From IMG/VR virus record IMGVR_UViG_3300045526_000169, positions 1 through 40,644 of that record: a stretch of DNA of 40,644 nucleotides; one strand, written 5' to 3'. The notes under the pieces are model-generated. The model had not been told where the DNA came from, did not search any database, and saw only the letters and a program-made list of their open reading frames with translations. A program made the position numbers and the translations under genes. Positions 2,881-33,894 of this stretch are shown here, piece by piece; the stretch's first letter is position 1; each line of letters begins with the position of its first letter. This DNA is from a virus (taxonomy: Duplodnaviria; Caudoviricetes).

Positions 2881-2911
2881 CAAATATACTAATAATTTGT
2901 TATTAAAACAA
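2881..2911 (-). promoter_or_regulatory. Bacteroidota sigmaA-type promoter
   Basis: TTG (2909-2911), 20 nt, TATATTTG (2881-2888, perfect -7 element). Confidence 0.65.
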
Positions 2912-4264
2912 CTTTTTCAACTTTTTCTTGAACATATTTCTATATATCTCATTGTACATCTTAACTGGATTGCCATAAAGGTCCTCAATATACTCTGGAA
3001 TCTTGGCACTCCCTTGAAAAGTTTCTTTGGTGCGTTTAATAATGTACTCGGGAACGATTCCCTCTGATACTTCTTTCAATATCTTTTTACCAACTGGATT
3101 TTCTTCTCTAGTTGCATTGATACCAAACTCTACAATATCTTTATCAATAAAAGGTAGTCTACATTCTATATGGTATTTCATAAACACCATGTTTGCTCGT
3201 CTAAAGTTTCCACGTGCCATCTTATCAACTTGTTCTTTCTTCTTCTCTCTCCACTCTTCATAAGTCTTGCACTTGGATGCCTGAATTGCAAAGTTCCCAT
3301 ATCCACCAAAAATCTCATCTGCTCCCTCTCCAGACAATACAACCTTAAATCCATCTTCTGAAATCTTCTTTGCTAATGGAAGATTCAATAAAGAGATTTC
3401 AATTTGTGCTTTCATATTACTTTCAATACTCTTAACAGTATCTTCAATATCTTTCATTGTTGGTTTATCTATAAAGACGGGTCTCAACTCAACACCAAAA
3501 TCTTTACAAACCTTTTGTGCATTCTTGTAGTCATTTGATTCTTTATCGAATACAGCAGTATATGCAACAATATCTGGATTGTACTTCTTAGCAATACCAA
3601 GAATCAAACTGGAATCAAGACCTCCACTAATCAAACAACAAAGTGGTACATCTGATACTAATCTTTTTCTAACTGCATTGTCGATTACTTCTAAACTAAA
3701 TTGTTTATAGTCAGGTGTTACATAGTCGTAGTATTGTACGAACTCGTTGGTATTGAAATTATAGTAGTTTGCTTTAGGGAACTCTGCCATTTGTTTTTGG
3801 AATCCCTTTTGTTCTGAACTCCAAAGAAAACCTTGTCCTGACTTTTCATAGAACAATGGAATCTTTCCATATCTATCTCTTACAAGTACTCTATTATTTC
3901 CACCATCTGCATAGAAGAAACAAAACATACCATCAATAACTTCTAAAGTCTTTTCTACTCCATAAGTAAAAAGCATTTGCGAAAGAACCTCAGTATCTGA
4001 ATTAGTACGAAATTCATATTCACTTAAATATTCTTCTCTTAACTCTTTGTAGTTATAGATTTCTCCATTAAAAGCAAGAATAGTATCCTCGAACTCAAAT
4101 GGTTGGTTCGCAGCAGATACTGGGTCTATAATAGATAGTCTGGTATGACCAACTTGAAAGTCACCCCACTCGACAACCTTTTGGCAATCTGGTCCACGAT
4201 GTTTTAATCTATCAATTACAATAGGTTCATCTTCGTATTTATATTTTCCTAGTAGGCCACACAT
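2903..4264 (-). CDS. asnB: AsnB-family glutamine-hydrolysing amidotransferase, candidate DNA-base amidating enzyme
   Basis: MCG N-terminal nucleophile, HRGPD, GHTRLSIID, QPF, FNGEIYNY, SDTEV, RDRYGKIPLFY, PP-loop SGGLDSS, VLSGEGADEIFGGY, RLPFID. Confidence 0.9.
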   Translation of the reverse strand: MCGLLGKYKYEDEPIVIDRLKHRGPDCQKVVEWGDFQVGHTRLSIIDPVSAANQPFEFEDTILAFNGEIYNYKELREEYLSEYEFRTNSDTEVLSQMLFTYGVEKTLEVIDGMFCFFYADGGNNRVLVRDRYGKIPLFYEKSGQGFLWSSEQKGFQKQMAEFPKANYYNFNTNEFVQYYDYVTPDYKQFSLEVIDNAVRKRLVSDVPLCCLISGGLDSSLILGIAKKYNPDIVAYTAVFDKESNDYKNAQKVCKDFGVELRPVFIDKPTMKDIEDTVKSIESNMKAQIEISLLNLPLAKKISEDGFKVVLSGEGADEIFGGYGNFAIQASKCKTYEEWREKKKEQVDKMARGNFRRANMVFMKYHIECRLPFIDKDIVEFGINATREENPVGKKILKEVSEGIVPEYIIKRTKETFQGSAKIPEYIEDLYGNPVKMYNEIYRNMFKKKLKKLF

Positions 4265-4265
4265 A

Positions 4266-5132
4266 TTATAAGTCTTTTAAAATTAACTTGTTTATTTTTT
4301 TAGTACCAATTCCCAATTTTCGTTTTGCATCTTCTTTAGATTCGTATTGAACTCCATTGATAGTAATTCTGAAATCTCTCCACTTTTCACCTGCAATCAA
4401 TCTCTTCAATTTTTTATCTCCTATTCCAAAATATTCTTTGGCATGCTTCTTACTATTAAACTCAATTCCGTTGATAGTTATTTTAGTATTGTCATAATTA
4501 GGCATCTTGTTCTTTATCTTAGTCCCTGCTGATACGCCAACTAAATCAGGTCTTCTATCAAATTCTTCTTTGGTAACTTGGAATGTATTTCCATCTCGGT
4601 CTTTACATGAAACTAATCCAATTGTATTACCAACTAAATCGGGTCTCCTATCAAATTCTTCTTTGGTAACTTGTAAGATATTTCCATCTTGGTCTTTGCA
4701 TGTAACTTTTCCACTTCCAATAAAAACTAATTCACCTGATATATATCTTGCGTCATTAACAGAAACAGATAATATATTATCTTGTCTATCTTTTACAGTA
4801 ACTATTCCTTTTCCATAATCATGTCCATAATCAAATCCACATGCAGCGTTTTTCTGATTATAACACTTCTTGATATTCTTAATATCATAGATTACTAAAA
4901 ATCTTCGCTCAAATTCATAAGCATCTTTTCGTGTCTTGAAGTATCTTAGTCTTTCATGTTTGAAGTTCTCGGGTCCATATTTCTTAATTGCATGTCTTAG
5001 TGCAACACCACTTCCCATATAGTTCTTTCGGATACCACTTCCGTAATAGAATCTACCATTAATAAGATTGGTTGTTTTATAAAAGTAATAGGGCGTTTCA
5101 GGACTGTAATCCTTTGAGATTAAATATTTCAT
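4266..5132 (-). CDS. free-standing GIY-YIG (Seg-like) homing endonuclease 1
   Basis: YFYKTTNLINGRFYYGS, YMGSG, KYGPENF, AYEFE, YNQK; C-terminal repeats and ITINGxxF/Y helix-turn-helix-like modules. Confidence 0.85.
   Translation of the reverse strand: MKYLISKDYSPETPYYFYKTTNLINGRFYYGSGIRKNYMGSGVALRHAIKKYGPENFKHERLRYFKTRKDAYEFERRFLVIYDIKNIKKCYNQKNAACGFDYGHDYGKGIVTVKDRQDNILSVSVNDARYISGELVFIGSGKVTCKDQDGNILQVTKEEFDRRPDLVGNTIGLVSCKDRDGNTFQVTKEEFDRRPDLVGVSAGTKIKNKMPNYDNTKITINGIEFNSKKHAKEYFGIGDKKLKRLIAGEKWRDFRITINGVQYESKEDAKRKLGIGTKKINKLILKDL
4537..4706 (-). repeat. 93-bp (31-aa) intragenic tandem repeat
   Basis: VTCKDQDGNILQVTKEEFDRRPDLVG and VSCKDRDGNTFQVTKEEFDRRPDLVG, plus a degenerate third copy upstream. 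Confidence 0.85.
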
Positions 5133-5205
5133 AATAAGTAATTATTTTTAGAAAGGGTGGAGGAACGCCAATTCCTATGATACCCTTTCTTTATTTAATC
5201 TCAAA
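5113..5205 (-). promoter_or_regulatory. homing endonuclease leader element, copy 1
   Basis: GATTAAATA at 5192-5200; outer stem 5150-5158/5182-5190; inner stem 5161-5165/5172-5176; 14-bp inverted repeat 5113-5126 vs 5192-5205. Confidence 0.75.
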
Positions 5206-5210
5206 AAACT

Positions 5211-6305
5211 TTACAAGTCTTTCAATATAGTATTGTAGATATTCTCTGCAACTGCTTTGAGCATGAGTGGAGGTACAGACCTCCCAAGCCTCTCCCAACG
5301 GCGAGAGTTTGATACGCTCTCATCCCCAAGATAATAGTCATATGGAAACGAACTCAATCTCTTAACTTCTTCTAATGTCAATGTTCTTGGTTCATTCCAA
5401 TGGTACAAACTTGGTGTTGCTATAATAGTAGGACAAATTCTATCTTTGTCTAATCTTATTCTAGTTATACCTGTAGTATGTATTTTCAATCTTTGGCCCA
5501 TATCGTAGAAAGATTCATTTGGTAATGTTTTGTGCCAATACTCTTCATATGTTTCTCCCATGCTACAAGTATTTCCACTATATGGAATATCTGCAATTGT
5601 TTCTTCTATTGTTTCTTTGCACTCGTTAATTGGTGGGTAACTAATTCTTTTATCAATATCTTTTCTAACACCAATAAAAATAGTTCTTGCTCTGGATTGT
5701 GGAACTCCATAATCTTTTGAATTGATTACTTTGAATCTAACATTGTAACCACAATCAACTAATGTATGGTATATAGTATTTTGCCAATATCCAAATAAAT
5801 CAACTTCTTCTGAACCCAATAGGTCTGCTGCAGCACCAATAGTCAATCCCTTAACGTTCTCTGCTACAAATACTTTAGGTTGTAATTCTTTCAATATTCT
5901 ACTGAACTCGAAAAACAAGTCATCTGTTCTTTGTTCTAAGTCACTGTACTTCTTAACCCTTCCCCATCCCTTTTCTCTTAATCCAGCAGTACTAAAACTT
6001 GCACAAGGTGGACTACCATCTAAAATATCGAGTTCGCCTCGTTTAAGTCCTATTTGCTTTAATATTGCTTCTCCTGTTAATTCTCTTATATCTTGGGGAA
6101 AGATATGTGTATCTGGATAGTTAGTACCATAGACATGTTGTGCTAATGGTACGAACTCGTTTATTGCAAGTACCTTTCCACCTGCTAATCTGTAACCAGT
6201 AGAAGAACCACCTCCACCTGCGAACAAGGAAACAACATTGAATAGATTTTTACTACTCTGTTTCTTTACATAGTCTAAATCGAATATATATGGTTTATTG
6301 CTCAT
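5211..6305 (-). CDS. C5-cytosine DNA methyltransferase homologue 4, candidate carboxymethyltransferase
   Basis: FAGGGG, GSPPC, ENV, QSRAR; motif X ERLGRSVPP. Confidence 0.92.
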   Translation of the reverse strand: MSNKPYIFDLDYVKKQSSKNLFNVVSLFAGGGGSSTGYRLAGGKVLAINEFVPLAQHVYGTNYPDTHIFPQDIRELTGEAILKQIGLKRGELDILDGSPPCASFSTAGLREKGWGRVKKYSDLEQRTDDLFFEFSRILKELQPKVFVAENVKGLTIGAAADLLGSEEVDLFGYWQNTIYHTLVDCGYNVRFKVINSKDYGVPQSRARTIFIGVRKDIDKRISYPPINECKETIEETIADIPYSGNTCSMGETYEEYWHKTLPNESFYDMGQRLKIHTTGITRIRLDKDRICPTIIATPSLYHWNEPRTLTLEEVKRLSSFPYDYYLGDESVSNSRRWERLGRSVPPLMLKAVAENIYNTILKDL

Positions 6306-7406
6306 TATATGGTTTTAATATTGTATTATATATATGTTCTGCAACTGCTTTAAGAAGTAATGGTGGAACTGCTCTACCAAGTCTTTCCCATTGTTTATTA
6401 AGTCTTTCTCCTAAAAAATAATCATCAGGAAAACTAGATGCTCTAATACATTCTTCAATAGTAAGTGTTCTTGGTTCATTCCAATGATATGCAAATGCTC
6501 GTGTCATAATAGTAGCACAAGGTTTGTCTTTATCTAATCTAGTTTTTACCATTCCGGACATTTTCTTACCTATTCTTTCTCCCATATGCATAAAGGTTTC
6601 ACCTGGTTTGCATAACCCCCATTTGTATTTATCCAAATCTGCCATTGGTAAAGTATTTCCACTAAATTCTAAATCTTTAGTAGCTTCAGAAATAGAATAA
6701 ATATTTTTATTACCTTCGGGATATTGTATTTTAATATCTATATCATTTCGTACTCCTATAAAAATAGTTCTTGCTCTGGATTGTGGAACTCTATAATATT
6801 TTGCATCTAATACTTTAAAACGAACTTTATATCCAGCAGATACTAAACTATGGTAAATTGTATTTTTCCAATATCCAAATAAATCAACTTCTTCTGAACC
6901 CAGTAGGTCTGCCGCTGTACCAATAGTCAATCCTCTAACATTTTCTGCAACAAATACTTTAGGTTGTACTTCTTCTAATATTCTTACAAATTCAAAGAAC
7001 AAGTCATCTGTTCGTTGTTCTAAGTCACTATATTTTTTAACTCTCCCCCAACCTTTTTCCCTAAGTCCTGCTGTACTAAAACTTGCACAAGGTGGACTAC
7101 CATCTAAAATATCCAATTCACCCCTTTTAAGTCCTATTTGCTTTAATATTGCTTCTCCTGTTAATTCTCTTATATCTTGCGGAAAGATATATGTATCTGG
7201 ATAGTTTTTAGCATATACATCTTGTGCAGCAGGTACGAATTCGTTTATTGCAAGTACCTTTCCACCTGCTAATCTATATCCAGTAGAAGAACCACCTCCA
7301 CCTGCGAACAAGGAAACAACCGTAAACAAATTCTTTGCAGATTGTTCTTTTACATAATTTAAATCATAGATAAATGGTTTATTGCTCATTATATGGTTTT
7401 AATATT
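6290..7406. repeat. 33-bp perfect direct repeat at two methyltransferase gene junctions
   Basis: ATGGTTTATTGCTCATTATATGGTTTTAATATT at 6290-6322 and 7374-7406, encoding the overlapping ILKPYNEQ* and MSNKP. Confidence 0.85.
6295..7389 (-). CDS. C5-cytosine DNA methyltransferase homologue 3, candidate carboxymethyltransferase
   Basis: FAGGGG, GSPPC, ENV, QSRAR; motif X ERLGRAVPP. Confidence 0.92.
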   Translation of the reverse strand: MSNKPFIYDLNYVKEQSAKNLFTVVSLFAGGGGSSTGYRLAGGKVLAINEFVPAAQDVYAKNYPDTYIFPQDIRELTGEAILKQIGLKRGELDILDGSPPCASFSTAGLREKGWGRVKKYSDLEQRTDDLFFEFVRILEEVQPKVFVAENVRGLTIGTAADLLGSEEVDLFGYWKNTIYHSLVSAGYKVRFKVLDAKYYRVPQSRARTIFIGVRNDIDIKIQYPEGNKNIYSISEATKDLEFSGNTLPMADLDKYKWGLCKPGETFMHMGERIGKKMSGMVKTRLDKDKPCATIMTRAFAYHWNEPRTLTIEECIRASSFPDDYFLGERLNKQWERLGRAVPPLLLKAVAEHIYNTILKPYNEQ

Positions 7407-8632
7407 TTATAGTAAATATTTCGTGCTACTGCTTTAAGAAGTAATGGTGGTACACTTCTTCCAAGTCTTTCAAGTTGTTGGTTGTAACTTCCATCTAAAT
7501 AATAATCACTTGGAAAACTACAAATCTTCTTGAACTCTGGAATAGTCATCTTACACAATTTCTTATAATCTTCGTGTTCTTTATACTCAACTCCACTAAA
7601 GTCTTTCTTTGCTAAATATCCCTCTTTGTGTAAATCAGGTACCTCATGCATTGGCAAATCATCATAAGTATAAAAACTCTCTCTATCTTTCTCTGGAATC
7701 ATTTCTAAAGTCATACCTTTTCTAAAAATTCTATAGTCTGCTTTCGGACCTATGCCACCAGTTGTTACGGTATAGCAAACATCTTTCGGCAATCTCATTC
7801 TATTGAACTCTTCACTAAATCCTTTCTTACAACTAATAAATTCCATATCAGGTAGTACATCTTTTAAAGTAACCTTTGTATCAAATTCTTTTGGAAAACT
7901 TGGCATACCTTTAATATCTTTTCTAACTCCAATTATAATCAATCTGGTTCTTGTTTGTGGTACTCCATAGTCCTCTGCATTGATTAACTTGTATTTTACT
8001 TTATATCCAAGACTTCTAAAGATATACATAATAGTATCTTCTCTATTGTCATTAGGGTCATTAGAACCAAGTAGTTGTAAATTTGGTTCTACTGCTAGAC
8101 CTCTTACATTCTCAGCAACAAAAACCTTTGGTTGCAACTCATCAAGTATTCTAATGAACTCAAAGAATAAATCATCAGTTCTTTGTTCAATACCCTCTGA
8201 ATAGTGTCTTGCCTTACTTCTCTCTTCTTTGTTCTTTGCAAATTGGTACTTACCGTTGATTGTACTAAAACTTGCACAAGGTGGACTACCATCTAAAATA
8301 TCAAGTTCACCTCTCTTTAGTCCTAGTTGGTCTAAAATCATTTGACCAGTTAATTCTCTTATATCTTGTGGAAAGATATGAGTATCTGGATAGTTCTTAC
8401 TATAAGTATTCCTTGCAGACTCTACGAACTCATTGATTGCTAGTACTTTACCTCCTGCTAATCTATAACCAGTGGAGGACCCTCCTCCACCGGCAAACAT
8501 TGAAACTACATTGAATAGTTCTTTGGAACTTTGTTTTCTTAGAAATTCCATATCATAGAAATATGGAAACTTTAATTCATCTTCTGGGATATCTTTATAC
8601 CATGTATCTTTCAATAAACTTCTCGCCATCAA
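7379..8632 (-). CDS. C5-cytosine DNA methyltransferase homologue 2, the most divergent paralogue
   Basis: FAGGGG, GSPPC, ENV, QTRTR; motif X ERLGRSVPP; N-terminal extension and longer variable region. Confidence 0.92.
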   Translation of the reverse strand: MMARSLLKDTWYKDIPEDELKFPYFYDMEFLRKQSSKELFNVVSMFAGGGGSSTGYRLAGGKVLAINEFVESARNTYSKNYPDTHIFPQDIRELTGQMILDQLGLKRGELDILDGSPPCASFSTINGKYQFAKNKEERSKARHYSEGIEQRTDDLFFEFIRILDELQPKVFVAENVRGLAVEPNLQLLGSNDPNDNREDTIMYIFRSLGYKVKYKLINAEDYGVPQTRTRLIIIGVRKDIKGMPSFPKEFDTKVTLKDVLPDMEFISCKKGFSEEFNRMRLPKDVCYTVTTGGIGPKADYRIFRKGMTLEMIPEKDRESFYTYDDLPMHEVPDLHKEGYLAKKDFSGVEYKEHEDYKKLCKMTIPEFKKICSFPSDYYLDGSYNQQLERLGRSVPPLLLKAVARNIYYKILKPYNEQ

Positions 8633-8670
8633 TTATTAATCTTTATTATTAAACACGAGAAAACTCTATT

Positions 8671-9750
8671 TTATTTTACCTTTGACAGAATATCTTCATA
8701 TATTTTTCCAATAACATACATATAACAGGGAGGCGCAACTGCTCTCCCAAGACGTTCTATCTTATCTTTATAGTTTTCTCCAAGATAATAGTCATCTGGA
8801 AATCCCATAATTCTAATACACTCTTTTACAGTAAACTTTCTATCATCCCAATGTGCAATACTTGCAGCAGAAATATTACCAGCACTTTGTGTCAAGGTAC
8901 CTGCATAACTATCAGGTCTTTGTTTCATCAAAGAGAAATATTTATCTGATTGCTCTCCTGGTTTCAATTTCTTCAACTCTTCTCCGATAGAGTATCTTGA
9001 GATATCACATTCGTCTAATTCTTGTTGTGTATGTTCTAAGTCAGCAAATGCATCTTCTAGTGTTACTATTCCACCCAATGGGTCAGCATAACTAATTCTA
9101 GTATCTATATCATTTCTAACTCCAATAAAAATAGTTCTTGACCTTGACTGTGGAACTCCGTAGTCTTTTGCATATAGTACTTTAAAACGAACTTTATATC
9201 CAGCAGATACTAAACTATGGTAAATTGTATTTTTCCAATATCCAAATAAATCAACTTCTTCTGAACCCAATAGGTCTGCTGCACTACCAATAGTAATACC
9301 TTTTACATTTTCTGCGACAAATACTTTAGGTTGTACTTCTTCTAATATTCTAACAAACTCAAAGAATAAGTCATCTGTTCTCTGAGCAGAGTCTGAATAT
9401 TTTTTAACTCTACCCCAACCTTTTTCTCTAAGACCTGCTGTACTAAAACTGGAACAAGGTGGACTACCATCTAAAATATCAAGTTCTCCCCTTTTCAATC
9501 CGAACTGGTCCAGAATCATTTTACCTGTCAACTCTCTTACATCTTGTTTAAAGATATGAGTATCTGGATAGTTCTTGTGGTATGCATCTTGTGCGGCAGG
9601 AATAAACTCATTGATACCAAGTACCTTGCCCCCTGCCAATCTATATCCAGTAGAAGAACCACCTCCACCGGCAAACAAAGAAACTACATTGAATAGATTC
9701 TTAGCAGATTGCTCTTTTACGTATTTTAAATCGTAGATAAATGGTTTCAT
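8671..9750 (-). CDS. C5-cytosine DNA methyltransferase homologue 1, candidate carboxymethyltransferase
   Basis: FAGGGG, GSPPC, ENV, QSRSR; motif X ERLGRAVAP. Confidence 0.92.
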   Translation of the reverse strand: MKPFIYDLKYVKEQSAKNLFNVVSLFAGGGGSSTGYRLAGGKVLGINEFIPAAQDAYHKNYPDTHIFKQDVRELTGKMILDQFGLKRGELDILDGSPPCSSFSTAGLREKGWGRVKKYSDSAQRTDDLFFEFVRILEEVQPKVFVAENVKGITIGSAADLLGSEEVDLFGYWKNTIYHSLVSAGYKVRFKVLYAKDYGVPQSRSRTIFIGVRNDIDTRISYADPLGGIVTLEDAFADLEHTQQELDECDISRYSIGEELKKLKPGEQSDKYFSLMKQRPDSYAGTLTQSAGNISAASIAHWDDRKFTVKECIRIMGFPDDYYLGENYKDKIERLGRAVAPPCYMYVIGKIYEDILSKVK

Positions 9751-9753
9751 ATA

Positions 9754-10425
9754 TTAAATCTCTTTTACTAGTAACCAAGACTTAAATGCTAAACTTTGCC
9801 AAAATGGTTGCACAGTTTCAAATCCCGCTTCTTTGAACAACTTAATATTCTGTGATTCTTTTAGTGGTTTCATAATAAACCTAAGGTCTACTTGCTTTGT
9901 AAGAATCTCATTTGAAGTAAAACTCTTTCTTTTGAAATCATAGTGGGCAAAGTTGAATACATCTTGAATAAATCCATCTTCAAGAAAAATCTTTTCTGAT
10001 ACTACAATTGCTCCACCCGGCATTAAGTTGTCGTACATTTCTTTTAGTACTTTTCTTCTTAATGCAATTGGTAAAAATTGCAATGTAAACAAACAAGCAC
10101 CAAAAGAATACTCTTCTCCTTTCCAGTCATTCAAATCCATATTGATAACATCTTCTCTTCCCTCTGTCAAGTTTTCTGCTTTATCAATACCGATATACTT
10201 AACATTAACATTCTTGTTATGTTTCTTTAGTACTCTAATTAGATTACCCGTACTACATCCAATATCATAAACCTTAGTATTATCTTTAATAAAGTATGTA
10301 CTGATATTTTTAATGTGTTCAATTAAACCTGAGTAGTTTTGAATAGACAAGTCGATATGATTATCAAAGTCTTCAATTGTATCAAAACTAAATTGTCTTA
10401 ACTCTTCTTCTTTTTCTTGTGTCAT
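9754..10425 (-). CDS. cmoA: CmoA-like carboxy-S-adenosylmethionine synthase
   Basis: Aligned by eye to E. coli CmoA as recalled: FDNHIDLSIQNY (FPDMIQRSVPGY), VYDIGCSTG (VYDLGCSLG), FTLQFL, GGAIVVSEK (GGALVLSEK), HYDFKR (HHDFKR), EAGF...WQSLAF. Confidence 0.82.
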   Translation of the reverse strand: MTQEKEEELRQFSFDTIEDFDNHIDLSIQNYSGLIEHIKNISTYFIKDNTKVYDIGCSTGNLIRVLKKHNKNVNVKYIGIDKAENLTEGREDVINMDLNDWKGEEYSFGACLFTLQFLPIALRRKVLKEMYDNLMPGGAIVVSEKIFLEDGFIQDVFNFAHYDFKRKSFTSNEILTKQVDLRFIMKPLKESQNIKLFKEAGFETVQPFWQSLAFKSWLLVKEI

Positions 10426-11444: not shown

Positions 11445-11822
11445 TTATAATATATTTTTAATATTTGGTGCAAAGTAATCTTCCCCTTTCATAATCTTTC
11501 CATCTTCTCTGTATATAGGTTTGCCATCTGGACCCAACTTAGACATATTACTTCTTTGGATTTCATCAAATACTTCTTCAATCTTGTGTTGAAGACCATG
11601 CGATAAGATTGTACCACACAAGATATAAAGTTGGTCTCCTAGAGCATCTGCAATTTCTACCAAGTCATCTGTAGCACATGCCATTAGATACTCTTGGTTT
11701 TCTTCTGCCATTAGTTTGTGTCTAAGTACAAATCTTTCTTCTGAAATTAATGTTGGGGATTCTGCTTGTTCTACTCCAAATGTTTCATGGAATTCCTTAA
11801 CTGCATCTAGTTGTTTTTTCAT
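11445..11822 (-). CDS. MazG-like all-alpha NTP pyrophosphohydrolase
   Basis: VKEFHETF, EENQEY, EIADALGDQLY, EIQRSNMSK, REDGKIMK. Confidence 0.85.
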   Translation of the reverse strand: MKKQLDAVKEFHETFGVEQAESPTLISEERFVLRHKLMAEENQEYLMACATDDLVEIADALGDQLYILCGTILSHGLQHKIEEVFDEIQRSNMSKLGPDGKPIYREDGKIMKGEDYFAPNIKNIL

Positions 11823-12681: not shown

Positions 12682-12942
12682 TTAATGTTCAATAATTAAA
12701 GTCAATAAAACTCCAGATTCTTTTATAAGTCTATGGTACCTATTCTTACCTACAACAATCGTACCAAAAAGTTTTGTATTAATTGGTAATTCATTATCAA
12801 ATTGGAATTTAAATTTACCAAATGGTAAAGTACGAACTATTCTATCTTTCTCGTCATAGTGCCATTTGTATAGACTACTATCATTAGAATAAAATACTCT
12901 AAAAATTAGATTGAATATTTTTAATTGGAAATACGGTTTCAT
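12682..12942 (-). CDS. small cupin-like phage protein
   Basis: WHYD...FQFDNELP...YHRLIK two-histidine pattern. Confidence 0.55.
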   Translation of the reverse strand: MKPYFQLKIFNLIFRVFYSNDSSLYKWHYDEKDRIVRTLPFGKFKFQFDNELPINTKLFGTIVVGKNRYHRLIKESGVLLTLIIEH

Positions 12943-14135
12943 TATCTATATTTATTAGATAGTTTTATATATTGATAGTTTGGAAAGTTTTTTGAATATA
13001 CTCTATATTTTATCTTTTCTCTTTTCAATCCCGTTGAATTAACTGCTTCCTTATATCCTAAGTATTCAATTCCATCAATTATAATAATAGTATTAGTAAG
13101 TAGTTTAGATATATTTTCTTTAGTATATTTAGTATGAGTTTTTCCTTTTTGAGATTCAGACATCTTCTTCTTTGATTCTTCTGTATGCTGTTTACCCGTC
13201 TGTGATTTTGAAATTTTTTCTTTTATTTTATTTGCTTTTTCTTCTCCGTGTATATCCTCCATAGACTTTCCTTTATATATATTAGGTCCATTTGACTTAC
13301 CTTTTTTATTATCGGATATTTTTTTCTTTGTTTCTTTACTGTGTTTAAATCTACCCAATTTTGAATTACTTCGTTTTTGGAACTCCAATTCCTTTAATTT
13401 GTTTTCAATAAAGGGATACATGTTCTTAAAAGAAGTTATAGAAAAGAATAATCTAATTTTATGTATAAGATTATATATATCACTATCCAATACTATATTC
13501 TCGATATTTATATTATCTAAATATAATAAATATTCCTTAATTTTAGACTCTTTCTGTAAACGACACCGCTTTTTTGCAGATATTGACATTTTCTCAATTG
13601 TACTTGGTTCAAACTTTCTATTTTTTATCTTTAGTTTTATTTCATCTGCACGTTCCTTGCCATAAACTTCTTCTATTGTTTTTCCTTTGGTTGGTTTTTT
13701 TCCTTTGGATATTTTTTGTTTGATTGTATCTGCTTTTTTAGTACCATATGCTTCTTCCAAGGTCTTTCCATGATGAACAAAACGTTTGTTCAAATATTCT
13801 TCTTTTTCTAACTGCGTTAATAAATTCCAATTATTTCCACCAATTGCTTCATCTTTTAAGTTATATGACTCGTTGAGAGAACTGATTTTATACAATTTTA
13901 AAAATTTGTCTTCGAATAGAAATGCTTCTTCTCGGGTCTCGAAATATCTTAGTCTTTCATGAGTAAAATATTCTTTACCATATTTCAATAGTGCAGTTTG
14001 AAATCTGCTACCGCTTCCGAGATAATTTTCATCACTTCCACTTCCATAGTAGAACTTTCCGTTAATAAGATTGGTTGTTTTATAAAAGTAATAGGGTGTT
14101 TCAGGACTGTAATCCTTTGAGATTAAATAATTCAT
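12942..14135 (-). CDS. free-standing GIY-YIG homing endonuclease 2 with NUMOD3-type motifs
   Basis: N-terminus nearly identical to endonuclease 1; HSKETKKKIS, HTEESKKKMS, GKTxEExYG repeats. Confidence 0.85.
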   Translation of the reverse strand: MNYLISKDYSPETPYYFYKTTNLINGKFYYGSGSDENYLGSGSRFQTALLKYGKEYFTHERLRYFETREEAFLFEDKFLKLYKISSLNESYNLKDEAIGGNNWNLLTQLEKEEYLNKRFVHHGKTLEEAYGTKKADTIKQKISKGKKPTKGKTIEEVYGKERADEIKLKIKNRKFEPSTIEKMSISAKKRCRLQKESKIKEYLLYLDNINIENIVLDSDIYNLIHKIRLFFSITSFKNMYPFIENKLKELEFQKRSNSKLGRFKHSKETKKKISDNKKGKSNGPNIYKGKSMEDIHGEEKANKIKEKISKSQTGKQHTEESKKKMSESQKGKTHTKYTKENISKLLTNTIIIIDGIEYLGYKEAVNSTGLKREKIKYRVYSKNFPNYQYIKLSNKYR

Positions 14136-14721: not shown

Positions 14722-15558
14722 CTATATAGCAATTTCTAATTTTGATTTTATTTTTTTAATATCATTAGACGTTACTACTTCAAAGTCTTCTAATTTAATA
14801 TTATAAAAGTTTGTGCCACTTGGACAGTTTAACTTAATATATGGTTGGAATGATAAAGGTTCTCTTTCTAATATTTCACTACATGCATCCAAATGTCTAT
14901 CATAGATATGGTAATTTTGAATAAAGTGTGCGAAAGTACCAACTTCATATCCCAAGTGACATGCGACCATCATCTGCAACGCAACATATTGAATCTTATT
15001 GATATAAGTTGCCATTATAGCATCTTGACTCCTTTGTGTTAATGTCATATCCAAGTAGTAAACATTTTGTTTTTTTCTAACAGTCCATAGAGTACCATAT
15101 GCACATGGATATAAACCTTTAGTTTCTCTTAGGTCATCTTCCTGTAGTAAATTTATATGATGTCTTCTAGAAAAGGGGTCAGACTCCAATCCTCTTAATA
15201 AATTATTCATTAAGTCCCATTTCTTAACAGTATCACCATATCTCCTACCAATAGTTCCATCTCCTATGTCCCACTCATTCCACCAAAAAATACCTCTATT
15301 ACGAGCATCTTCTAAACTTGATGTTTGGTCTTGATAAATCCAAAGTATTTCTTTTATTCCAGTTTTTATTGCAGTATTTCTTAGTGTAGTTATTGGAAAT
15401 TCGTTTTTTGTTAAATCATACTTTTCAAAAACTTGAGGAATAAAGAAACAATGAGCAGGTGTACCATCTTCATACTTAGGTCTTGGATTCTCATCGGTAT
15501 TTTTTTCATCAAGAATTTTAAATAGGTTATATTTGTAATATGTATCTGCTTTTATCAT
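14722..15558 (-). CDS. thyA: thymidylate synthase
   Basis: FPITTLR, EILW, DPFSRRH, catalytic PC, QRSQD, NKIQY, HIYDRH; start moved to ATG 15558 because the longer ORF runs through a terminator. Confidence 0.93.
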   Translation of the reverse strand: MIKADTYYKYNLFKILDEKNTDENPRPKYEDGTPAHCFFIPQVFEKYDLTKNEFPITTLRNTAIKTGIKEILWIYQDQTSSLEDARNRGIFWWNEWDIGDGTIGRRYGDTVKKWDLMNNLLRGLESDPFSRRHHINLLQEDDLRETKGLYPCAYGTLWTVRKKQNVYYLDMTLTQRSQDAIMATYINKIQYVALQMMVACHLGYEVGTFAHFIQNYHIYDRHLDACSEILEREPLSFQPYIKLNCPSGTNFYNIKLEDFEVVTSNDIKKIKSKLEIAI

Positions 15559-15580
15559 ATATTCTTTACATATTAAAAAC

Positions 15581-15612
15581 AAAAAAGAGCCCAAATATTT
15601 CATTGGACTCTT
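15581..15612 (-). terminator. intrinsic terminator
   Basis: AAGAGTCCAA-loop-TTGGGCTCTT then a T-run on the minus strand. Confidence 0.65.
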
Positions 15613-15659
15613 GACAATATCCACATGGGATATTGGGGGTGTTTCTCTTTAGAATCTTT

Positions 15660-16577
15660 TTAGTTCCAGTAATTACTTGGTGGAACGTATCCTTTGATTT
15701 TTTCTCTTACTTGAGTATCAACTACTTTCTTGTTGATTGGTTTACCTGCTTCTTTTACTTTAATATAAAAAGCATCTTCGATATAAGAACCACCAGCATC
15801 GGAAAATGCCATTTTTGAATCAACACCTTTCTTATTGAATGCATACCAAATATCACCATCTAAGTACTTCTTGATATCATTACCCATATCCAAGATATCT
15901 TTAGCAGTTTGTGCAGCACCTCTATGTGTATCCATTAAAATCTCTTCGGGAACTACTCTATCTCTTTCTCTATTTTGTGCTTTTGCTACTTCAAAATCAT
16001 TAACAACCCATACAATGTGTACATTCTTTGGGTCATATCCCAATTCTCTTACATCATCAGTAACTTCTCTTAATTTGTTCATGTTCTTTAAAGTAACATC
16101 AAAAATAAGATTTGGTTTTCTATCTTCTGGTGCAGTTAAGATACTAGCAAATTTTGCCTTTGCTCTCTTGTCGATAATATTTATTTCTCCATCCAATACA
16201 GAATGCAACAAAAAAACATTCTTTGGGTCTTTTAAACTCAATCCTTTGATATCATGACCAGTCTTGTCTTTTACCATCTGTGCCAACTTTGTACTTTTAA
16301 GTGCAAGTTCTTTAATGGCATCTACATCAAAAGTATTACCTTCAATACCTAACAAGTTACTTGAAACAAATCCCTTTCCAGAACCAGCACCCCCTGCAAG
16401 GATTACCACATTTCCAAATTTAGGATATGCTTTACCACCAAAGGTAATTAATTTTTCCAACAATTCACTTGTTGTATATTTTGAGAATGCTTCTTCTGCA
16501 GCACCTAAGTTAAAGTCCTCGCAGATAAACTCTCGTTCTTTCTTCTTGAACATTTGAAATTCATATAATGGTTTCAT
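15660..16577 (-). CDS. P-loop kinase (zeta-toxin/AAA_33-like), possible internal head protein
   Basis: Walker A GGAGSGKG, DVD, LIFDVT, NRERDRVVP lid; N-terminus MKPLYEF...EFICE. Confidence 0.75.
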   Translation of the reverse strand: MKPLYEFQMFKKKEREFICEDFNLGAAEEAFSKYTTSELLEKLITFGGKAYPKFGNVVILAGGAGSGKGFVSSNLLGIEGNTFDVDAIKELALKSTKLAQMVKDKTGHDIKGLSLKDPKNVFLLHSVLDGEINIIDKRAKAKFASILTAPEDRKPNLIFDVTLKNMNKLREVTDDVRELGYDPKNVHIVWVVNDFEVAKAQNRERDRVVPEEILMDTHRGAAQTAKDILDMGNDIKKYLDGDIWYAFNKKGVDSKMAFSDAGGSYIEDAFYIKVKEAGKPINKKVVDTQVREKIKGYVPPSNYWN

Positions 16578-21166: not shown

Positions 21167-21248
21167 GATTAAATAAAGAAAGAACCATCATCGGACTGCA
21201 ATCCTAGGTTCTTTCAAAAAATAATTAAAAATTATGAATTATTTAATC
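21167..21248 (+). promoter_or_regulatory. homing endonuclease leader element, copy 3
   Basis: GATTAAATAA 21167-21176; outer stem 21178-21186/21207-21215; inner GGA-CTGCAA-TCC; complement TTATTTAATC at 21239-21248. Confidence 0.75.
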
Positions 21249-22145
21249 CATAAAGATTATAGTCCAGAAACTCCCTATTACTTTTATAAAACTACAAATT
21301 TATTGAACGGAAAGTTCTATTATGGAAGTGGAAGCAAAGAAAATTATATCGGTAGTGGTGTAGCACTAAACGGAGCAATCAAGAAATACGGAAAAGACAA
21401 TTTCAAACACGAAAGACTAAGATACTTCAAAACCCGACAAGATGCATATAATTTCGAGGATAGATTTTTAAAACTATTCAATTTAAGACGTTTAAAAAAG
21501 GCTTACAATTTAAAGAACAACGGAAGAGGTCCAGATGGATATAGTCATACCGAGGAAACTAAAGATAAAATTAGTAATTCTATAAAAAATCTATACAAAG
21601 ATATCGAATACTATAATAATTTTTGTAATTCTTTTGTTGGTGAAAAAAATCCATTCTATGGCAAAAAACATACAGAAGAAACAAAACATAGATTGAGCGA
21701 AAGTAAAAAGGGAATAGAGACGAATTCACTAAAGTGTTTTGTTGATATATATGGAGAAAAAGAGGGAACATTTAGATTCAATGAATGGAATCGAAAGAAA
21801 TCAGAAGCACTAAAAGGAAGAGAATATTCAGAAGAAACCTTGAAGTTGATGTCCCAAAAGAAACAAGGTGTTTATGATGGAGAAAAGAATCCTATGTACG
21901 GCAAACAACACAAAGAGTCCAGTAAAGCAAAAATGTCCCAAAAGAAACAAGGTGTTTTTGATGGAGAAAAGAATCCTATGTATGGAAAGAGAGGAGATAA
22001 GTCTCCGATAGCAGGTACATATTTGATTGAAGGAGTTATTATTAGTAGTCTTCAAAATGTAGCATTAAAATATAATATTTCAAAAAAGACCGCTATAAGA
22101 AGAATAAAATCTGAAAAGTATCCAGATTGGTTAAAGATATCTTGA
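21234..22145 (+). CDS. free-standing GIY-YIG homing endonuclease 3 with NUMOD3 repeats
   Basis: Same N-terminal family as endonucleases 1 and 2; GEKNPFYGKKHTEETK; two copies of MSQKKQGVxDGEKNPMYGK at 21849 and 21933 (84-bp period). Confidence 0.88.
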   Translation: MNYLIHKDYSPETPYYFYKTTNLLNGKFYYGSGSKENYIGSGVALNGAIKKYGKDNFKHERLRYFKTRQDAYNFEDRFLKLFNLRRLKKAYNLKNNGRGPDGYSHTEETKDKISNSIKNLYKDIEYYNNFCNSFVGEKNPFYGKKHTEETKHRLSESKKGIETNSLKCFVDIYGEKEGTFRFNEWNRKKSEALKGREYSEETLKLMSQKKQGVYDGEKNPMYGKQHKESSKAKMSQKKQGVFDGEKNPMYGKRGDKSPIAGTYLIEGVIISSLQNVALKYNISKKTAIRRIKSEKYPDWLKIS

Positions 22146-25384: not shown

Positions 25385-25464
25385 GATTAAATAAAAAAGG
25401 AACCATTATCGGATTGCACTCCTAGGTTCCTTTAAAAATAATAAATTTTTATGAATTATTTAAT
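25385..25464 (+). promoter_or_regulatory. homing endonuclease leader element, copy 4
   Basis: GATTAAATAA; outer stem 25396-25404/25425-25433; inner GGA-TTGCAC-TCC; complement TTATTTAAT at 25456-25464. Confidence 0.75.
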
Positions 25465-26131
25465 ACAAGAACAAAGTAGATATATTTTCGTATATCAAAC
25501 AAAAAACATAATTAATGGAAAAATCTATATAGGTGTACACAGTACAACTAATTTAGAAGATGGATATATTGGAAATAGTATATATCGACAAAGTGATGTT
25601 GATTCAAGGAAAGAGAAAGTGGGATTAGTTGCAGCAGTTAGAAAATATGGATATGAAAATTTCAAAAGAGATATACTAAAGTTTTTTGATACCGAAGAAG
25701 AAGCATATTTATACGAAGCAGAATTGGTAACAGAAGAGTTTGTAGTAAGAAATAATAATTACAATATAGCAGTTGGTGGAAGAGGTGGTAATACGAGAGC
25801 AGGTTTTACGGAAGAACAAATGATAGATTATAAAAGAAAACTATCCGAAGGTGTACTAAGAGCGAAAGACGAGGGAAGAGGATTTACTGAACAACATTCA
25901 GACGAAACTATAGAAAAACTTAGTATAATTCAAAAAGAAAAAATGAAAGAGATAGTAACAGATGAATATCGAAACAAGTTGAGTAGTGCATCTAAAGAGA
26001 GTTGGAAAAATAGAAAATCATATAAAACTATTATTGTTATAGATGGTATCGAATATGAATCTAAAAGAAGTGCGGCAAATATACTCGGTATTGGCAGAGG
26101 TAGATTAAATACTATAATAAAGAATCAATAA
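25451..26131 (+). CDS. free-standing GIY-YIG (Seg-like) homing endonuclease 4
   Basis: FVYQTKNIINGKIYIGVH, YIG, KYGYENF, AYLYE, YNIAVGG; HSDETIEKLS. Confidence 0.88.
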   Translation: MNYLIQEQSRYIFVYQTKNIINGKIYIGVHSTTNLEDGYIGNSIYRQSDVDSRKEKVGLVAAVRKYGYENFKRDILKFFDTEEEAYLYEAELVTEEFVVRNNNYNIAVGGRGGNTRAGFTEEQMIDYKRKLSEGVLRAKDEGRGFTEQHSDETIEKLSIIQKEKMKEIVTDEYRNKLSSASKESWKNRKSYKTIIVIDGIEYESKRSAANILGIGRGRLNTIIKNQ

Positions 26132-32472: not shown

Positions 32473-32783
32473 TTTCTAAACAATAATCGCAATACTCTGT
32501 TACCAGATATGTCTTCTATAATATTTACTTCTGATACCATTTTATATTGGTCTGCTATACTAACATCTATATCACAAAGTTCTCCTTTCTTGGAAAGAAA
32601 ACCCCCATCAGGACATCTAGATAGAATAATATCAGTATCTTCATATCTAAGATGTACTGAATCGGGTAAACTAGAAATTTCTTCGAGTGGTAACTCATTA
32701 CCGTTTTGCAAGATTAACCTCAGTGGATTTAATGTTATTCTCAATTCTTTTTCTATTTGTATCATCAAGGCTTCCTTTTTCAT
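32469..32783 (-). CDS. hypothetical protein, start uncertain
   Basis: 4-bp overlap with the downstream gene but 86-bp overlap with the upstream glycosyltransferase. Confidence 0.45.
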   Translation of the reverse strand: MKKEALMIQIEKELRITLNPLRLILQNGNELPLEEISSLPDSVHLRYEDTDIILSRCPDGGFLSKKGELCDIDVSIADQYKMVSEVNIIEDISGNRVLRLLFRK

Positions 32784-33894
32784 TTCCTTTTTTTAATGCG
32801 TATTTAAAATATTTTAGTGCTTCTTCAAAGTTTCCAATATAGAATAAAGATACTCCATACATATCATACATTGCCCAATCATATACCATATTTTCTAAAA
32901 ATAAACTTGATGTATTACCAAGTTTCAATTTCTTTAATGCAAGTTTACAAAATTCTATTGCGTTTTTATGCATTTGCTCCTTTTGTAAGTAAGATACTAT
33001 ATTGAAAATATGTTCACATCTATTGTTAGTATCCAACTCTTCGCATTTTAAAAGTTGCATTATGATAAACTCATCGGATTCAAATGTATAATACATCCTA
33101 GATATCATCAATTGAGAATAGTATCTTTCTTCTTGATATCCTCTATTGTCCTTTACTCTTTCTTTGTAATAGTTTATGGACTTTTTTAATAAGTCTTTAC
33201 CTCTTTCAGTATCACCTTGTTGCATTGAGAAATTTCCAGCATCTCGGTAACTCTGACCTAAATAGAATGTCCATCTCGGGTCTTCCCAGTTATTCTTTTC
33301 TTGATAGTTTAAAAGTATTTCTGCATGGTCTTCATATTTCTTAGAAATATCACCTTTCCAAGAATTGCCATCTGGGACAATCTTCATATTACCCAAATCG
33401 AAAATTGCAACCTTACCTCTAGTTTTGTCTTTCTTTCTAAGAATCTCATGAACAGGACCATACCATTCATAGTTGCTACTGAACTTGTAGAATTGAGACC
33501 TATTATAGTTCATATGACCATATTTGCAATTTATCAAATATTCATCTATATTACTATTTGTAGTAAATAATAAATTTAATTTACTTTTACTAAAATCTGG
33601 ATTTAACTCAAGTATCTCATCAGCATCCATCCAGAAACCATAATCCCCTAATTCTTTTCCCTCTTCAATAGACTTGTTTCTACACTCTTCAAAGTTTGTA
33701 AATGGAAAATCTACAATCTTTCCAACAATCCCCTTTGAATCAAAAAAGTTTTTAATTACTTGTTTAGTATTGTCGGTAGAACCAGTATCCACTATACAAT
33801 AAGAATCTAACATCTTATAACAAGACTCAAGAGCACGTTCTATAACATGCTCTTCATCTTTAACTATCATAGTTAAAACTAATCTATTGCTCAT
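32698..33894 (-). CDS. GT2 glycosyltransferase with C-terminal TPR repeats
   Basis: MIVKDEE, VDTGSTDNT, RN, DADE (DxD), WYGPVHE, PRWTFYLGQSYRD; TPR-like helices. Confidence 0.9.
   Translation of the reverse strand: MSNRLVLTMIVKDEEHVIERALESCYKMLDSYCIVDTGSTDNTKQVIKNFFDSKGIVGKIVDFPFTNFEECRNKSIEEGKELGDYGFWMDADEILELNPDFSKSKLNLLFTTNSNIDEYLINCKYGHMNYNRSQFYKFSSNYEWYGPVHEILRKKDKTRGKVAIFDLGNMKIVPDGNSWKGDISKKYEDHAEILLNYQEKNNWEDPRWTFYLGQSYRDAGNFSMQQGDTERGKDLLKKSINYYKERVKDNRGYQEERYYSQLMISRMYYTFESDEFIIMQLLKCEELDTNNRCEHIFNIVSYLQKEQMHKNAIEFCKLALKKLKLGNTSSLFLENMVYDWAMYDMYGVSLFYIGNFEEALKYFKYALKKGNEKGSLDDTNRKRIENNIKSTEVNLAKR

Follow-up and report, generated by a model that had tools for sequence, protein, structure and literature searches.

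A phage gene cluster with four candidate cytosine carboxymethyltransferases and a putative glutaminase-containing amide ligase

What would a phage make with a homologue of the carboxy-S-adenosylmethionine (Cx-SAM) synthase CmoA, four C5-cytosine transferase paralogues and an asparagine-synthetase-like protein, all encoded in one run of genes? The question is raised by the IMG/VR record IMGVR_UViG_3300045526_000169, analysed here over its whole 40,644 nucleotides (nt) (the window), a 40.6-kb contig of ~30% G+C from a large T4-like phage (tail sheath, baseplate, clamp loader and PhoH genes are present). We consider the cluster a form of the published CmoA-CmoX-CmoY pathway, in which four CmoX-type carboxymethyltransferases (X1 to X4 in reading order) would act at different DNA motifs and a ligase with a glutaminase domain would cap the product as a primary amide (probability roughly 0.6). 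The pathway itself is already known; the array of four copies, combined here with a glutaminase ligase, is a variant that we did not find in print. A check of the open reading frames agreed with the earlier note on this DNA, which had described a co-oriented run of a cmoA-like gene, four C5-transferase genes, a homing endonuclease and an asnB-like gene: all seven are intact and lie in series from 10425 to 2903 on the minus strand, with no internal stops and with intergenic distances of 3, 38, -11, -11, 78 and 1 nt in reading order, the first of these separating the end of cmoA from X1.

The reference system comes from Synechococcus phage S-B43 (Yang et al, Nat Commun 2025; PMC12783734). As described there, S-B43 CmoA makes Cx-SAM, S-B43 CmoX (SpCmoX) forms 5-carboxymethylcytosine at GC, and the asparagine-synthetase-like CmoY (SpCmoY), the sole CmoY assayed, adds glycine to give a glycine amide. 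CmoX proteins were recognised by an SPPC motif together with Arg350, at whose place HhaI has Asn304, and the reported counts are 5,615 CmoX, 4,257 CmoA and 2,251 ligases. The anti-restriction effect of CmoX was shown against HhaI only. The second largest ligase cluster carries a glutamine-hydrolysing domain and is predicted to use glutamine-derived ammonia; a ligase of this kind was not obtained in soluble, purified form. The earlier note had suspected that the first step might already be known, and PMC12783734 does show CmoA and CmoX making 5-carboxymethyl-deoxycytidine (dC). The route that it proposed, from Cx-SAM through 5-carboxymethylcytosine to the carbamoyl form, fits everything tested as chemistry and fails as a novelty, since both steps are in that paper, one shown and one predicted. 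AsnB-type primary amidation, which the note had taken as likely to be new, is likewise already predicted there for glutaminase-type ligases.

All four paralogues match PF00145 (E ~1e-50 each) and are 41–49% identical to S-B43 CmoX. The top PDB match of X1 is 8YF3 (E 3e-63), with M.HaeIII as the runner-up (E 5e-24), and 8YF3 is also the top fold match of X2. Residue mapping found equivalents of SpCmoX Phe25, Glu47, Phe48, Asp69, S-P-P-C98 and Arg350 in 4/4 paralogues, which includes the whole SPPC catalytic motif (the Arg350 equivalents are listed in Table 1). Canonical C5 methyltransferases have Asn in motif X (HaeIII reads 'GNAV' in the alignment), and X1 to X4 all have Arg. These residues bear on the alternative that X1 to X4 are ordinary SAM-dependent 5-methylcytosine methyltransferases and that a metabolic asparagine synthetase lies nearby by chance. 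The Pfam and NCBIfam names do read this way (DNA cytosine methylase, asparagine synthase), and the ligase exceeds the TIGR01536 (asparagine synthase) cut-off with 285 vs 267 bits. However, the motif-X Arg is in place in every paralogue and wild-type SpCmoX is reported to take Cx-SAM only (PMC12783734), the aspartate-binding motif of the ligase is replaced, and the gene triad recurs in other phages (both described below), so we regard this alternative as very improbable. Cx-SAM/CmoX chemistry, by contrast, is predicted for the window phage with high confidence. It would be fed by the cmoA product, whose only PDB sequence matches are CmoA/YecO proteins (3/3), whose best NCBIfam model is TIGR00740 (E 3e-32), and which shares 39% identity and a KxxxLR helix with the proven S-B43 CmoA.

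The ligase has the glutaminase residues Cys2, Arg23, Arg42, Leu43, Ile45, Asn66, Gly67, Glu68 and Asp90, which cover every glutamine-site residue of AsnB listed in PMC5775275, together with SGGLDS and SGEGADE motifs. Its predicted model (predicted local distance difference test score, pLDDT, 95) shows the two-domain AsnB fold, with a template modelling (TM) score of 0.86 to 1ct9. PMC5775275 also gives Thr-Thr-x-Arg for aspartate and ATP binding; in the window ligase the TTIR of AsnB is replaced, with Lys285 followed by A286-Q287-I288-E289 (KAQIE). Lys285 and Glu289 (KxxxE, an observation of the present analysis and not part of the ligase definition of PMC12783734) occur in 70/70 glutaminase-type ligases of the related loci, 15/15 short ligases and SpCmoY, and Arg stands in the Glu289 column of 10/11 longer AsnB-type proteins. 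Because TTxR is replaced, KxxxE is shared and the glutaminase is intact, we assign the protein by its motifs to the glutaminase subclass of CmoY-type ligases, with its own ammonia source. A plain asparagine synthetase was rejected, considering the replaced aspartate-binding motif and the recurring gene set with CmoX and CmoA.

Such a ligase might still add another amine (an amino acid, a polyamine or a hydroxylamine-type group), in which case the final base would not be carbamoylmethylcytosine. The use of glycine by SpCmoY would fit this, as would the ligase clusters with unknown amines noted in PMC12783734 and the presence of the AsnB-fold hydroxyamidotransferase TsnB9 among both the sequence and the fold matches. 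The glutaminase domain, however, is not only intact in the window ligase but kept across its family (HRG in 70/70, the N-terminal Cys motif in 69/70), and the ligase retains the Glu of AsnB SGEG, unlike the short CmoY ligases. We therefore consider another amine unlikely and a primary amide the probable product.

Co-occurrence of cmoA, an Arg-motif-X transferase and an asnB-like gene, which the earlier note had proposed to look for, was counted among viral loci of the ligase family, taking the best 80 of 220. A full CmoX was present in 76 of these 80 loci, cmoA in 77 and both in 73, and in the remaining 7 one part is absent or cut. After collapsing at 80% identity, 34/34 ligase loci have a full CmoX and 33/34 the triad. 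The CmoA-CmoX-glutaminase-ligase triad is common, as PMC12783734 implied. Neither a scan of viral contigs with the cmoA product alone nor a scan of genome contigs found relatives. Also as the earlier note had stated, no CmoB-like family was found among the 47 proteins scanned, which represent the 40.6-kb contig rather than the whole phage.

The variable region of C5 methyltransferases determines the target sequence. Between the four paralogues the catalytic cores are 57–84% identical pairwise (84% for X3/X4), and the variable (target-recognition) regions are 37% identical for X3/X4, 33% over 52 residues for X1/X3, and without a match for the remaining four pairs, so the X2 region matches none of the other three. 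None of the four gave a BLAST match to the variable region of the GC-reading S-B43 enzyme. The X1 region has matches (E<1e-5) in 99 of the 226 other CmoX, and that of X2 is 59–61% identical to copies in two related loci (L157 and L158). A quick core tree joins X3 and X4 as sisters (Shimodaira–Hasegawa-like approximate likelihood ratio support 99), clusters X1 with copies from L005 and L156, and leaves X2 as a separate, unplaced lineage; collapsing at 88% left 96 of the 204 rows in it, and the splitting pattern left out the X2-type copies of L157 and L158. The predicted model of X2 has pLDDT <50 over residues 262–360, its variable region, and is uninformative on DNA recognition. Since the variable regions diverge and such regions set the target, X1 to X4 likely read different DNA targets, and we lean towards at least three distinct specificities. 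The array of four specificities had been put forward by the earlier note as likely to be new: an array of this kind was not found in print, and the four specificities are a reading of the divergent target-recognition regions only.

Among 293 related loci, many of them short, cut or redundant, one CmoX-like gene above 150 bits is found in 202, two in 12 (~seven distinct arrays) and more than two in none. The window belongs to a syntenic clade in which a clamp-like gene is followed by cmoA. In this clade, L005, L157 and L158 each combine an X2-type copy with one whose variable region is of another type, and at the end of L156 a second copy begins; the sequences of L005, L156 and L158 stop within the array or at its edge, and their copy counts are minima. 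The ligase slot of this clade also varies, with none in L157, a short CmoY-type in L158 and the glutaminase type in the window. Joints on single low-depth contigs of other sequencing runs either skip X3 (in two runs) or fuse the start of an X4-like copy to the middle of an X1-like one; these joints hint weakly at recombination within the array. In literature open without subscription, we found neither a multi-CmoX array nor a primary amide as a demonstrated product, and no match for carbamoylmethylcytosine; the words 'paralog' and 'copies' are absent from the main text of PMC12783734.

Other relatives showed further arrangements. L294–L297 are S-B43-like clusters with two CmoX, one of which has a variable region 84–85% identical to that of S-B43, and L295–L297 have a glutaminase-type ligase where S-B43 has the short CmoY. 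In L025, L026, L045, L057, L071 and many of L170–L218, the neighbours of cmoA are distant C5-transferase-like genes in which GTPC or GFPC takes the place of SPPC; some of these carry the motif-X Arg, and the SPPC filter described in PMC12783734 would miss them. L002 (Erwinia phage pEa_SNUABM_5) has cmoA together with a ligase of the short CmoY type, and no C5-transferase was found within 6 kb on either side. L085–L093 have a CmoX with SPPC and Arg and no cmoA in the flanks examined; RGCY is nearly absent from three of them (L089, L091 and L092, observed/expected 0.01–0.02).

Site usage in the window offers a possible target. RGCY occurs 34 times vs 225 expected (~sevenfold low), and none of 200 codon shuffles was as low; the depletion does not extend to all GC sites, and CCNGG and GGWCC showed no depletion in the window. 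Observed/expected ratios for RGCY are 0.10 in L005, 0.16 in L157 and 0.22 in S-B43, which has the proven GC-motif CmoX and whose variable-region cluster, from one phage group only, is depleted in AGC/GCT. The RGCY deficit (-193) is accompanied by an excess of RGTY (+129), with RGAY at -6 and RGGY at +10, a pattern that cannot part deamination from restriction-site avoidance because both predict transitions. It is possible that RGCY is the target of one CmoX paralogue. In marine viral genomes RGCY is the most frequent modified motif according to PMC8919816, where it was called as N4-methylcytosine (m4C) and no matching enzyme was found; a link between those marks and CmoX is our conjecture.

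Several observations weigh against the proposed reading. First, the cmoA product scores 112 bits on TIGR00740, under the 193-bit equivalog cut-off, and has Gln178 at the place of the E. coli CmoA Arg, with Arg182 four residues further. The carboxylate-binding Arg of the E. coli protein is Arg199. Active S-B43 CmoA is also without that Arg, having Glu there and Arg four residues on (the same shift), and Arg at the second place is found in 111 of 120 CmoA homologues, the other 9 not being matched by the pattern. By sequence, the window protein is a divergent phage form and not the cellular equivalog. Second, the L157 cluster without a ligase means that the ligase is dispensable in the window's clade. 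Third, RGCY is also low in the absence of a full CmoX (0.22 in L025, 0.17 in L026, 0.47 in Tenacibaculum phage PTm1), many CmoX loci show no RGCY depletion, and when variable-region clusters were compared with depleted 4-mers over 76 non-redundant loci, no consistent motif emerged for the X1 type. Not one GATC is present (0 vs 176 expected from codon shuffles), so the phage also avoids sites by selection. CTAG, ACGT, TCGA, CCTTC and GAGAC are under-used in the window as well, and the missing and under-used sites suggest avoidance of host restriction sites. Finally, differing variable regions do not prove differing targets, and those of X3 and X4 stay detectably related (E 7e-18).

The last point leads to the alternative that the pathway is the same and the paralogues are largely redundant: their GC-type sites would be identical or overlap, or some copies would be inactive, and dosage or recent duplication would explain the array. 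It would account for the sister relationship of X3 and X4, for RGCY being the only strongly depleted cytosine motif among the palindromes tested, and for the contig joints that skip X3. It does not sit well with the little or no similarity between the X1, X2 and X3/X4 variable regions on conserved cores, with the retention of the X2 type alongside a different partner in three relatives, or with catalytic residues that are intact in all four copies, and we consider it improbable, though less so than another amine.

We also asked whether the four copies are an assembly duplication, and rejected this: the longest exact repeat among the four transferase genes is 92 nt, and each variable region is matched at 0 differences by contigs of the best-matching sequencing run. 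The gene order rests on the window's own assembly, as among the contig pieces listed none covers the entire array and the matched contigs can confirm neither gene order nor copy number; a 33-nt exact repeat is common to the X2/X3 and X3/X4 junctions. In two runs the contig depth is 69–71 over 5097–8291 (X4, X3 and most of X2) vs 45–53 on either flank, where depth does not equal copy number; a second strain with only that block, or partial amplification, could explain this. RNA runs contained at most 0.05 of the window's words.

Under the four-motif, primary-amide reading, CmoA would convert SAM and prephenate to Cx-SAM, as shown for the S-B43 homologue. Each CmoX would flip its cytosine, the SPPC cysteine would attack C6, and the carboxymethyl group would be moved from Cx-SAM held by the motif-X Arg, a mechanism shown for S-B43 whose residues are present in the window paralogues. 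The four variable regions would direct this to different sites, one possibly RGCY, and the ligase would adenylate the carboxylate and add glutamine-released ammonia to give 5-carbamoylmethylcytosine (dC+57 Da). Protection from host restriction enzymes is the likely purpose. More speculatively, the locus may be a modular cassette whose CmoX array gains, loses and recombines target regions next to a swappable ligase slot, and in the window phage it may write 5-carbamoylmethylcytosine, a base not reported so far, at as many as four motifs, RGCY among them; the m4C-called RGCY marks of marine myovirus-like genomes in PMC8919816 could then in part be CmoX products. Four natural carboxymethyltransferases with similar cores and different target regions offer a test of CmoX specificity, which PMC12783734 left open, and the array could supply carboxyl handles at specific sites in DNA. 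For the glutaminase subclass the ligase is a further, AT-rich candidate and, if active, adds a new natural DNA base.

Table 1. Genes of the cluster in reading order, with positions in the window; the Arg given for each CmoX paralogue is the equivalent of SpCmoX Arg350.
Predicted product	Position	Strand	Length	Remarks
cmoA-like carboxy-SAM synthase homologue	9754..10425	-	223 aa	PDB sequence matches and TIGR00740
Candidate CmoX paralogue X1	8671..9750	-	359 aa	Cys99, Arg336; widespread target-recognition-region type
Candidate CmoX paralogue X2	7379..8632	-	417 aa	Cys119, Arg392; TTG start, ATG next; divergent lineage in syntenic relatives
Candidate CmoX paralogue X3	6295..7389	-	364 aa	Cys101, Arg339
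Candidate CmoX paralogue X4	5211..6305	-	364 aa	Cys101, Arg342
GIY-YIG/NUMOD1 homing endonuclease	4266..5132	-		Domain matches; probably mobile passenger
Putative glutaminase-containing CmoY-type amide ligase, AsnB fold	2903..4264	-	453 aa	PF00733 and GATase_6/7

The position of the endonuclease varies, as L005 has a similar one between cmoA and X1 and none was found within the L157 or L158 clusters. Three more endonuclease-like genes with NUMOD3 or GIY-YIG matches lie at 12942–14135, 21234–22145 and 25451–26131, the first sharing its N-terminus with the homing endonuclease of the cluster. Elsewhere in the window are genes for a MazG-like pyrophosphohydrolase (11445–11822), a thymidylate synthase (14722–15624), a Zeta-type P-loop protein (15660–16577) and a family 2 glycosyltransferase (32698–33894); no tRNA genes were found in the 40.6-kb contig. 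The nearest cultured-phage matches of the clamp loader are from Sphingomonas phage PAU (38%) and PTm1 (36.5%).

Compared with known systems, the window shares with the E. coli CmoA-CmoB pathway for tRNA 5-oxyacetyluridine (cmo5U) a CmoA homologue as the Cx-SAM supplier (PMC10491745), whereas CmoB is absent from the window and the acceptor enzyme would be a C5 DNA-cytosine transferase. The ligase resembles E. coli AsnB (1CT9) in its two-domain fold and in its glutaminase and adenylation residues, but it is ~100 residues shorter, has AQIE for TTIR and has Asn353 where AsnB has Asp384. Closer in gene content is Streptomyces phage TurkishDelight (gp123–125), which also combines CmoX, a glutaminase-type ligase and CmoA; its gp124 is the best cultured-phage match to the window ligase (32–34% over almost the whole length), and it differs in having a single CmoX and ParB-domain neighbours. 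The glutamine-amidase ligase cluster predicted in PMC12783734 (A0A7T0Q3R0) has the same combination; gp124 may be A0A7T0Q3R0 itself, and the window ligase may fall in that network cluster. The locus belongs, by sequence criteria, to the published CmoA-CmoX-CmoY system of S-B43: the same three enzyme types stand in one operon, all Cx-SAM-binding and catalytic residues are retained, and the ligase has the KxxxE of SpCmoY. Unlike S-B43, it has four CmoX instead of one, with unmatched variable regions, and its ligase has a glutaminase domain that SpCmoY is without; a glycine amide is therefore not expected as its product.

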